NCBI RefSeq assembly: GCF_035285525.1
Contig: NZ_JAYKGW010000210.1
Coordinates: 30,001-62,000 of the forward strand
Source of the DNA: Okeania sp.
GTDB taxonomy: Bacteria > Cyanobacteriota > Cyanobacteriia > Cyanobacteriales > Microcoleaceae
DNA: 32,000 bases
Direction: 5' to 3'
The notes under the pieces are model-generated. The model was given only the letters and a program-made list of their open reading frames with translations, did not search any database and had not been told where the DNA came from. Position numbers and translations under genes: made by a program. Shown piece after piece: positions 19,838-21,501 of this stretch. How positions within the stretch are numbered: position 1 is the stretch's first letter; every line of letters begins with the position of its first letter.

Positions 19838-20453
19838 TTAACTATTCATTAATTCTTGACCAAAAAGTTTCTTTGTCTTAACCCAAGCATCAGCAGCAGC
19901 TTCACCATCGTAACTACTACGATGGTCGCAAAAGAAACCGTGGTCTGCTGGATAACGAAATACTTGATGCTTTATTTGATGTTTCTGTAATTCTGCCTCT
20001 ATTTGGTCTACCTGTTCTATCGGTATTAAAGGATCTTCTGTACCAAAGAAACAATATATTGTACCACTAATTTTCGGAGTTAAAATAATAGTAGGTTCGC
20101 CACCACCAGGAGTACCAGTAACAATACCCGCTCCATAAAAAGAGGCAGTTGCTTTAATTTCTGGTAAAGTAGCTGCTAGATAAGTGACATGACCTCCAAA
20201 ACAGAAACCTATACAGCCAAATTTATCTGATTTAACAGTAGGTATAGTTTTGAGATAATTAATCGTAGCTTGAATATCGCTGAGTAGTTCTGAAGCTTTG
20301 GTTTGTTCTTTATATTTACGACCTAATATTAAGTCCTCTTCTGTATACCCCACTTCAAAACCAGGAGCTTGACGTTGATAAATTGAAGGAGCGATCGCTA
20401 CATAACCTTCTTTAGCAATTTTTTCTGTTACTTCCCGAATATGGCTATTAACT
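19838..20453 (-). CDS. Dienelactone hydrolase family protein, exon 2 (C-terminal 205 codons)
   Basis: Starting 3 nt into the exon, the frame reads VNSHIREVTEKIAKEGYVAIAPSIYQRQAPGFEVGYTEEDL...GCIGFCFGGHV...ADHGFFCD, the DLH nucleophile and His motifs. The track ORF 19838-20353 is its distal part. The frame stays open up to the intron 3' splice site. Confidence 0.8.
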
Positions 20454-21370
20454 GTTATAGTCGATGGGAGGTATTATCCTCCGCACCTCTACTTCAGAAC
20501 CGGACGTGCGACTTTCACCGCATCACGGCTCCTAGCAGTCTGTGGTAACATCTCAATTAGAGACAAAATCCGTTGATTAGGACTAAACCGGGTCAAGGTT
20601 TAGTTGATCCTAATCTTCCACCGTCTCAGTCAGGGAGTGCCTTTGGCCTACCGCCTTGGAGTTACTTACTTCTGTGTCGTGTTGCATTCGACTTTCGCCT
20701 GGGCAATTTCAGGCTAGAGGTTTTTACCCTGTACGCATAGGCTTAGGAAACTTCACTCTCAGGTGTCTAAGCATCATCACCCTTCCTTTGAGGTTTCTCG
20801 ACTGCCGGGGGTAATTTCGTTCCCCCATCCTACCCGTCAAGCAAGAGTTCCGAGCTTTCCTCCTACTAGCCACAAAACCTACATGACCAGACTTGCTTGC
20901 CGTTTTTTCTCGTTCCGAATTACAGATTGTTTTGACGGTTTAGGGCTGTCCAATTCGCCTACACGATCCCCAGGGATGCGTCTAACATTTGGATTTGACG
21001 CGGGGATTCTCGTGTGCGGTCAGGAGATTTGGAGTGACTCCTTGCCGAGAAATAAGACGCTTTTTCAGGGCATTCCGTAATGTACCCATGCCGTCTCCCC
21101 ATTACCCCCAGTGCGCCTATCACCCTTAGCTCTGATTGGGGCCTGATGCCAGCTTCGCTCTGTCAGTGAAAAGGTCTGACTCGGCGTGGCCAGGTCGGGA
21201 GTCCGCTGTCCCTCAGCGGGTGGGACTTTCACCCACATCCGTAACTCAGTTATCACTATAAGGCTCTTCATTGGTGGCCTCGCTTATTGCAGGCTCTTCC
21301 TCTGTGGCTTCATTGGACCCTATTCATACCCCTCTAGTTGCTAGAGGCTCCTAATAGGAACGAGTCGCAC
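20454..21370 (-). mobile_element. ORF-less group II intron (917 nt)
   Basis: The minus strand starts GTGCGACTCG (GUGYG) and ends CGACUAUAAC (AY). Domain V lies at 20497-20531. Domain VI has an unpaired A at the complement of 20461, 8 nt from the end. Domain IV is reduced to the perfect hairpin GATTAGGA-TCAA-CTAAACC...GGTTTAG-TCCTAATC (20575-20615). ATTTCT and CCAAAT loops are complementary to the last 12 exon nt. There is no RT/maturase ORF. The insert is visibly GC-richer than its flanks. Confidence 0.85.
20497..20531 (-). ncRNA. Group II intron domain V
   Basis: GAGCCGUGAUGCGGUGAAAGUCGCACGUCCGGUUC has the AGC catalytic triad, the AC bulge, an upper helix closed by a GAAA tetraloop and a lower helix. 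Compared with the 34-nt consensus it has one extra 5'-strand nucleotide. Confidence 0.85.
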
Positions 21371-21501
21371 CCAAATATTTCTTGTACCACTATTACTGCT
21401 GGAAATGGACCTTCTCCTATCGGTTGTGCTAAATAGGAATCTATTTGTAGGTCTCCATTGGGGACTTGAATATGGTTTGTCTGGATTTCTAGTTCTGTCA
21501 T
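21371..21501 (-). CDS. Dienelactone hydrolase family protein, exon 1 (N-terminal 43 codons + 2 nt)
   Basis: ATG at the complement of 21499-21501. MTELEIQTNHIQVPNGDLQIDSYLAQPIGEGPFPAVIVVQEIF + GG is the typical DLH N-terminus, ending exactly at the GUGCG intron start. 131+616 nt = 747 nt = 248 codons plus stop once the exons are joined. Confidence 0.8.

Follow-up and report, generated by a model that had tools for sequence, protein, structure and literature searches.

Bacterial group II introns lie mostly outside housekeeping genes, and those without an open reading frame (ORF) are rare; the cyanobacteria and the chloroplast-like (CL) lineage are named as the exception in a review of these elements (PMC4424553). 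In Trichodesmium, splicing in vivo is documented for 17 group II introns, which occupy 10 host genes; ten of these introns are ORF-less, and the assistance of splicing in trans by an intron-encoded protein (IEP) has been demonstrated in E. coli (PMC4143802, PMC4649490). In Thermosynechococcus, the TeI3 introns without an ORF are both spliced and mobilised by 'driver' IEPs (PMC2882425). Here we describe an ORF-less group II intron in a gene for dienelactone hydrolase (DLH) of the cyanobacterium Okeania sp., located in a stretch of 32,000 nucleotides (nt) of contig NZ_JAYKGW010000210.1, which is called the window throughout. In a full-text search of the literature, no paper devoted to the group II introns of Okeania was found.

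Okeania is a sister genus of Trichodesmium, and the two are alike in being marine and filamentous and in having AT-rich genomes with much non-coding DNA. The DLH intron resembles the ORF-less introns of Trichodesmium in having no ORF, in lying inside a conserved protein-coding gene, in belonging to a lineage that also has related IEP-encoding introns, and in the mechanism expected, a maturase acting in trans. It differs from them in genus and in host, dienelactone hydrolase not being among the ten host genes listed (PMC4143802); moreover, splicing was established there by RNA-seq, whereas for the Okeania DLH intron it is predicted. The first-pass annotation of the window had stressed that bacterial group II introns mostly avoid conserved protein-coding genes. 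As a general statement this agrees with the review literature (PMC4424553), but it overstates the rarity for a lineage with the Trichodesmium precedent (PMC4143802, PMC4649490).

The intron and its host gene

The DLH gene is on the minus strand and is divided by the intron into two exons (Table 1). Joined, the exons make 747 nt, or 248 codons and a stop codon; a GGA glycine codon is re-formed at the joint, and the reading frame of exon 1 is picked up again at 20453 and runs to a stop codon that ends at 19838. The exon and intron coordinates first proposed, the intron length of 917 nt, the re-formed codon and the 248-codon ORF all hold. The insert had also been noted as GC-richer than its AT-rich host, and this is so: the G+C content is 51% in the intron, 37-39% in the exons and 34% in the whole window.

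The spliced product matches the Pfam DLH family (PF01738) in a single stretch, with residues 20-244 on profile positions 1-216/217 and an E value of 5.9e-63. A protein search gave 6,591 relatives. The closest of these (83-92% identity, 245-249 residues) are uninterrupted and come from Okeania, Trichodesmium, Dapis and other Microcoleaceae, and the spliced protein is colinear with uninterrupted orthologues at 70-92% identity. In an alignment with 11 orthologues there is no indel at the junction, where the sequence QEIFGVNxHIR is invariant, and the window protein retains all 109 of the 109 columns that are invariant among the orthologues. The colinearity assumed across the predicted junction is thus borne out. 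The invariant columns include C128, D184 and H215. The DLH family has a Cys-Asp-His catalytic triad, and by analogy these three residues would be the triad of the window protein.

Other copies of the intron, denoted by L numbers below, were collected in three ways. An exact-pattern scan for domain V (35 nt with four positions free, one genome per species) gave 26 loci; L029-L033 came from protein look-ups, and L034-L037 from a metagenome scan with a motif of domain IV (D4). None of the 26 loci carries a Trichodesmium title, and the introns described in that genus are therefore not the same intron copies. The domain V pattern occurs also on contigs of Actinomycetota/Mycobacterium metagenome-assembled genomes (MAGs) (L005, L008, L009, L016 and L025-L027). 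Their domain V has 89-95% identity by BLAST to that of the window over 35-38 nt, and nothing beyond domain V is similar; these loci, having only some 35 nt in common with the intron, are not siblings and were set aside.

The 3' end of the intron is recognised by the Rfam model for group II introns (RF00029), which matches from 20533 to 20454 on the minus strand at 50.6 bits, the gathering score being 40, and is complete over model positions 1-77. The characteristic termini are present, GUGCG at 21370-21366 for the GUGYG consensus and AC at 20455-20454 for AY. Domain V was described at the outset as having an AGC triad and a GAAA loop, and domain VI as having an unpaired A 8 nt from the 3' end; both descriptions stand, A20461 being unpaired in the Rfam alignment at 8 nt from the 3' splice site and forming the branch-point candidate. 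Domain V of the window is identical to that in six ORF-containing copies (L018, L012, L015, L002, L006 and L010), and in domain VI compensatory changes distinguish the window from L018 and L012. The model for domain V of the plastid ndhA/ndhB introns scores 41.8 bits (E 3e-8) against domain V of the window, which is under that model's gathering score of 61. Two further Rfam matches, both weak, were dismissed as chance: one to sR35, and one to SAM-II that crosses the 3' splice site and reaches 21.8 bits where the gathering score is 44.

The Rfam group II models for domains I to IV (D1-D4) found nothing significant in the intron even at a permissive threshold, the best being RF02003 with 12.4 bits and an E value of 5.3. 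These models were unusable, and domains I to III were therefore established by comparison with the sibling copies. An RNAalifold consensus of intron positions 1 to approximately 608 in nine copies contains 161 pairs, of which 46 have compensatory changes on both sides. Over all copies and pairs, 97.2% of the cells hold standard pairs; sliding the 3' partners by 1-3 columns lowers this to 34-43% and leaves 2-6 compensatory pairs. The covariation was reached by none of 500 shuffles. As the alignment that gave the structure also served for these counts, the figures lean somewhat in its favour. The short hairpin that follows domain II is assigned to domain III by position only; four of its six pairs are compensatory between the ORF-less and the ORF-containing lineages. 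The domains follow one another in the layout expected of a group II intron (Table 1).

The exons are recognised by three pairings between exon-binding sequences (EBS) of the intron and intron-binding sequences (IBS) of the exons, listed in Table 1. The EBS1 and EBS2 loops hold different sequences in the sibling copies. In eight of nine copies EBS1 pairs at six of six positions with its own 5' exon, and these represent eight different target sequences; non-cognate combinations of EBS1 and exon pair at a mean of 2.7 of six positions, and none pairs at six. Among the variable columns of D1, intron position 418 alone is complementary, in nine or more of ten copies, to the base that opens the 3' exon; A, T, G and C all occur as that base among the copies tested for EBS3. 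An EBS3 separate from EBS1 is the IIB arrangement. One copy, L029, does not fit, with EBS1 pairing at four of six positions and C opposite C at EBS3; it was treated as a mis-targeted or decayed copy and not counted against the EBS assignment. The pairing, which is the strongest of the independent tests, fixes the splice sites where they had been placed from the start.

It also excludes an assembly chimera. A multi-copy family does break assemblies, and Okeania contigs end inside the copies L004, L011, L015, L022 and L024, so that a repeated intron sequence could in principle have been misjoined into the DLH locus. However, the junctions coincide exactly with GUGCG and AY, the frame and one codon are restored, and EBS1, EBS2 and EBS3 of this copy match these exons (6/6, 6/6 and 1/1) and no other copy's exons. 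We regard an artefact of this kind as barely conceivable. Covariance-model, comparative and exon-pairing evidence agree, and support the conclusion that the insert is an ORF-less group II intron of IIB type, positioned precisely inside the QEIFG/VN motif of the DLH gene. This is also how the insert was first interpreted, with removal that would rely either on the intron RNA itself or on an IEP in trans.

Table 1. Features of the interrupted DLH gene and its intron (window positions; intron positions in brackets).
Feature	Position	Strand	Basis or remark
DLH exon 1, 131 nt	21501..21371	minus	43 codons + 2 nt, ends ...CAA GAA ATA TTT GG
ORF-less group IIB intron, 917 nt	21370..20454	minus	GTGCGAC...CTATAAC
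DLH exon 2, 616 nt including stop codon	20453..19838	minus	first base A at 20453 is IBS3
IBS2 AGAAAT	21377..21382	minus	6/6 Watson-Crick with EBS2 ATTTCT
IBS1 ATTTGG, last 6 nt of exon 1	21371..21376	minus	6/6 Watson-Crick with EBS1 CCAAAT
Domain I	20909..21364 (7-462)	minus	closing stem CUCGUU/AACGAG; RNAalifold consensus of 9 copies and pair counts
EBS2 ATTTCT	21048..21053 (318-323)	minus	upstream loop; complement of AGAAAT
EBS1 CCAAAT	20987..20992 (379-384)	minus	loop of hairpin GCGUC...GACGC
EBS3 U	20953 (418)	minus	pairs with first base of exon 2
Domain II	20835..20902 (469-536)	minus	5 compensatory pairs in closing stem among copies
Short hairpin at domain III position	20807..20826 (545-564)	minus	after invariant J2/3-like GGUAGGAU
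Domain IV, about 273 nt	20534..20806 (565-837)	minus	closing stem GGCAGUC/GACUGCU
Ancestral D4a / IEP start remnant GCTTAGACACCTGAG-AGTGAAG	20751..20772	minus	alignment with five ORF-containing copies
D4 arm hairpin, 41 nt	20575..20615	minus	8+7 bp, 4-nt bulge
Domain V	20497..20531	minus	AGC triad, bulge, GAAA loop; Rfam RF00029 match
Domain VI	20457..20492	minus	Rfam alignment

Domain IV and the intron family

Domain IV had been taken to be only a perfect hairpin of about 40 nt. This proved to be incorrect: the domain is approximately 273 nt long, and the hairpin at 20615..20575, itself with a 4-nt bulge, forms one of its arms. The closing stem covaries: L007 and L034 have GGCAAUC/GAUUGCU, and ORF-containing copies have GGUAAUC/GAUUAUC. 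The absence of a reverse transcriptase (RT)/maturase ORF from the intron was confirmed, as the intron strand has no ORF above 68 residues, and a tblastn search with the family IEP at word size 2 for a coding remnant gave a best E value of 0.16.

The first 56 nt or so of D4 align with D4 of the ORF-containing copies, including the region where the IEP starts. Here ACACAUGAGUAAUCAUAGUGAAG of the ORF-containing copies has become ACACCUGAG-AGUGAAG in the window; the former start codon ATG has changed to CTG and 7 nt have been deleted. The 5' part of D4 with the former IEP start is the known binding place of IEPs. It is followed by a segment of approximately 210 nt (intron 621-828, window 20750..20543) without detectable similarity to the IEP ORF and without a match in Rfam. 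This segment is common to all ORF-less copies, with a mean identity of 92%, compared with 84% for D1 in the same copies. This is most simply read as a single loss of the ORF, followed by the spread of the ORF-less form.

It is distinctly doubtful, on this evidence, that the segment is an acquired functional RNA module rather than junk left by a deletion. If it were one, it may dock one 'driver' maturase or a host factor for many introns, or it might instead free the ribozyme from the need for a protein. Such a module would have let the lineage settle in conserved genes such as DLH, and we would be looking at a free-living bacterium moving toward an organelle-like, common splicing apparatus.

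The ORF-less form is present both in Okeania genomes and in marine metagenomes. Full-length ORF-less siblings were found by BLAST in Okeania sp. SIO3B5 (L007, 91% identity) and SIO2F4 (L003, 87%), and with L034-L037 the siblings at other sites span 87-91% identity. The ORF-less D4 is common to the window, L007, L003, L034/L036/L037 and L035, while their flanks and EBS sequences differ. The ORF-containing copies L018 and L012, of approximately 2.2 kb, match the window intron at positions 1-470 and 836-917. L018 encodes a protein of 503 residues with RVT_N, RVT_1 and GIIM domains and a visible C-terminal HNH motif. The nearest solved structure to this IEP is the T.el4h maturase/RT of Thermosynechococcus (6ME0, E 2e-66), whose intron family has been described as CL/IIB1 (PMC2882425). 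The DLH intron is of type IIB by its EBS3, and may be of the chloroplast-like class, the IEP of its relatives being closest to T.el4h among solved structures.

At least 12 named Okeania assemblies contain related IEPs, as do assemblies of Dapis, Hydrocoleum and Trichodesmium, the Trichodesmium members being 79% identical. IEP-encoding relatives are in fact abundant in every Okeania assembly examined. The closest IEPs were traced to GCA_029976225.1, GCA_013332795.1, SRR14108923 and SRR11793864, none of which is tied to the assembly of the window; the proteins of the window itself could be followed only to short Logan contigs of SRR19514071.

The insertion sites of the siblings are varied. L007 (1540-2455 of its Okeania sp. 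SIO3B5 sequence) breaks the frame of an IS5-like transposase between ...SKGGLSTKIHGVV and DALGNP. Three further copies, L034 (9408-10320), L037 (318-1230) and L036, lie between LHHIDG and NHDNW in the HNH motif of the IEP gene of another intron, whose domain V is located approximately 100 nt downstream of the insertions; L036 has its 3' end at 5856 and is cut off on the 5' side where the contig stops, at 6561. These three are twintrons, and the outer IEP would be disrupted unless the inner intron is spliced. L003, L012 and L018 have no open frame over the junction. From these sites (a transposase, IEPs, no open frame), most copies behave as ordinary bacterial group II introns, the exceptions being insertions in conserved genes, namely DLH and hpf. 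The latter is interrupted by L030 (3386-5585 of JARPNX010000125.1, GCA_029976225.1), an ORF-containing sibling of 2,200 nt that splits hpf/lrtA in frame. The joined exons of L030 give a continuous S30AE + S30AE_C protein, a ribosome hibernation factor, and its EBS1 TACATC pairs at six of six positions with the exon end GATGTA. A separate observation concerns L033 (116-761), an ORF-containing copy inserted in J5/6 of another group II intron, immediately 3' of domain V; the last bases of its 5' exon are ...CACGTCCGGTTCTG, and EBS1 and EBS2 both match them.

The distribution of these copies bears on how the DLH intron would be removed. The likeliest mechanism is a maturase acting in trans, by analogy with the direct precedents in Trichodesmium and Thermosynechococcus. 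It is further suggested by the retention of the former IEP start region and of a domain V identical to that of the IEP-encoding copies, and by the presence of one ORF-less architecture at several sites, which requires an RT in trans. These same features argue against splicing in vivo without any protein, as in C.te.I1 of Clostridium tetani. An intact ribozyme core would allow it, the conserved 210-nt segment of D4 could stabilise the fold, and one bacterial ORF-less intron is thought to be independent of an IEP (PMC4424553). Nearly all known bacterial ORF-less introns, however, co-occur with related IEP-encoding introns (PMC4424553), and such relatives are abundant in the Okeania assemblies examined. 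Protein-free splicing of a genuine intron is accordingly an improbable alternative to a maturase in trans.

The state of the host gene and its surroundings

An empty site is found in Okeania sp. SIO3I5, which has the gene order GntR-DLH-S1 of the window with an uninterrupted DLH gene. Both the SIO3I5 gene and an allele from JGI metagenomes read CAAGAAATATTTGG up to the insertion point and GGTTAAT after it. IBS2 and IBS1 are the same in the window and in both empty-site alleles. The first base of exon 2 is A in the window and G in the empty alleles, a synonymous difference (GGA/GGG), and either base can pair with the U of EBS3.

The gene itself shows no decay. The ratio of non-synonymous to synonymous change (dN/dS) is 0.12 and 0.16 between the window and the SIO3I5 and JGI alleles, and 0.13 when those two intact alleles are compared with each other. 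The window has 9 amino-acid changes specific to its lineage, the others 13 and 10. The DLH gene thus bears no mark of relaxed constraint, although a very recent insertion would have left none so far.

In public annotation the split gene is not recognised. Proteins encoded next to it in the window are on record under Okeania sp., NCBI taxid 3100323. The ORF of exon 1 continues into the intron and has been entered as a hypothetical protein of 55 residues (MEB3342951.1). Exact look-up of the spliced 248-residue protein and of the 171-residue exon-2 ORF in a collection of 15 billion proteins found neither. The collection therefore holds no identical intron-less allele of the former and no transcript-derived copy of it. 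The 5' junction between DLH and the intron, searched with degenerate wobble positions in JGI metagenome contigs, gave 0 matches.

These observations could also be read as an insertion that inactivated DLH, the intron being removed poorly or not at all and the gene being a young pseudogene. In favour of this, public annotation treats the locus as broken, with no exon-2 ORF protein on record; the close relatives all have uninterrupted genes; the junction allele is absent from the JGI metagenomes, so that the insertion may be recent and confined to a strain; and no IEP gene was found for this genome, of which the 32-kb window was covered. It is opposed by the lack of frameshifts and stops, by the retention of every invariant residue, by an amino-acid change that is not accelerated, by the perfect pairing of EBS1, EBS2 and EBS3 with the exons, and by the intactness of domains V and VI and of the branch-point A. 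Comparable Trichodesmium introns, moreover, splice in vivo (PMC4143802). We consider a pseudogene unlikely.

Our preferred reading is that an intact ORF-less IIB intron entered the DLH gene by retrohoming or retrotransposition and is spliced out with a maturase supplied in trans, restoring the enzyme of 248 residues. Taking the boundaries, fold, exon pairings, family relations, empty site and undecayed gene as observed, we give this reading a probability of roughly three in four. The intron would belong to a non-autonomous sub-lineage that lost its RT/maturase ORF once and spread by altering its exon-binding sequences. It would have entered at the target AGAAAT-ATTTGG followed by A, which pairs with EBS2, EBS1 and EBS3. 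Transcription through the intron would then yield an intron RNA that folds into a ribozyme of six domains and leaves by branching at A20461, most likely with the assistance of the maturase of a related ORF-containing intron elsewhere in the genome; this would restore the GGA codon and a functional enzyme.

Four points weigh against this reading. Splicing in vivo at DLH is a step that we infer. The IEP gene is absent from the 32-kb window, and related IEPs were seen only in other assemblies or sequencing runs. The low dN/dS averages the whole divergence, and a very recent insertion into a dead gene would look alike. Finally, the window copy deviates from the consensus fold of domains I to III at nine of the 161 pairs: five in domain II, three in one helix of domain I, and one remaining C/A mismatch. 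The five in domain II look like an alignment offset, because domain II of the window folds cleanly by itself (-20.3 kcal/mol); the three in domain I were re-paired only by hand, in a shifted register.

The surroundings of the gene contain several repeats. Perfect tandem heptamers, TCAGTTA or TTAGTTA in 3.7 copies each, are located at 21503-21528, 10016-10041, 19225-19250 and 23709-23734. The first of these lies between an AGGAGG motif and the ATG of DLH, reading on the minus strand AGGAGGTAC-(TAATAAC)x3-TAAA-ATG. Short tandem heptamer repeats are common in filamentous cyanobacteria, and those of the window look like them. A scan of the DLH locus for promoters and terminators gave no more sites than shuffled sequence and was not used. 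In the spacer between the DLH and S1-domain genes, a unit of 122 nt is repeated 2.5 times at 96% identity (19375-19685). The S1-domain gene is flanked by a perfect 15-nt repeat in 4.2 copies and by GGGAGATG in 5.9 copies, at 18010-18072 and 19262-19307 respectively; mechanically derived ORFs through these repeats read MEGTG or GDGE, and the repeats are probably non-coding. Two stretches, 9965-12116 and 14615-18255, have no ORF of at least 120 residues and gave nothing in an Rfam scan at gathering thresholds. Genomes of the Trichodesmium/Okeania group are rich in non-coding DNA, which these stretches fit.

Comparison with other ORF-less introns, and significance

The history proposed for the Okeania intron has a close parallel in the TeI3/TeI4 family (CL/IIB1) of T. 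elongatus (PMC2882425). There too the ORF was apparently lost once, after which ORF-less copies multiplied; the exon-binding sequences changed to suit new targets, and copies are found in IS elements and, as twintrons, in IEP ORFs. The two families are also alike in the IIB-type EBS3, and among solved structures it is T.el4h that the Okeania IEP most resembles. They differ in what remains of the ORF. In TeI3 both ends of the ORF flank a clean deletion of 1.5 kb in DIVb, whereas the Okeania intron keeps the start region only and has some 210 nt of D4 in which no similarity to the ORF is detectable. The location of the copies differs as well, few being within genes in T. elongatus, whereas in Okeania the DLH copy and L030 in hpf are in conserved genes.

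A second comparison is with plastid introns, which likewise lack an ORF, lie in housekeeping genes and need factors acting in trans; domain V of the window resembles that of ndhA/ndhB, though below the gathering score of that model. Unlike them, the Okeania intron is bacterial and apparently a recent gain, as the empty site in a congener indicates; its ribozyme core is not degenerate and its family is still mobile.

The phenomenon to which the DLH intron belongs is a known one. The intron adds a further host gene and another genus to it rather than a new type of element, and as a case it opens no new question. Its significance is that ORF-less introns in conserved genes, a pattern described in Trichodesmium, now have an example in the sister genus Okeania. 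The family is small and defined, and with at least five target sites whose EBS covary it is usable for the study of retargeting and of a shared maturase. For the annotation of these genomes the consequence is more direct. The public Okeania annotation counts an intact enzyme gene as missing or broken, and gene callers would repeat this mistake for every gene with such an intron, the split hpf gene being a second case.

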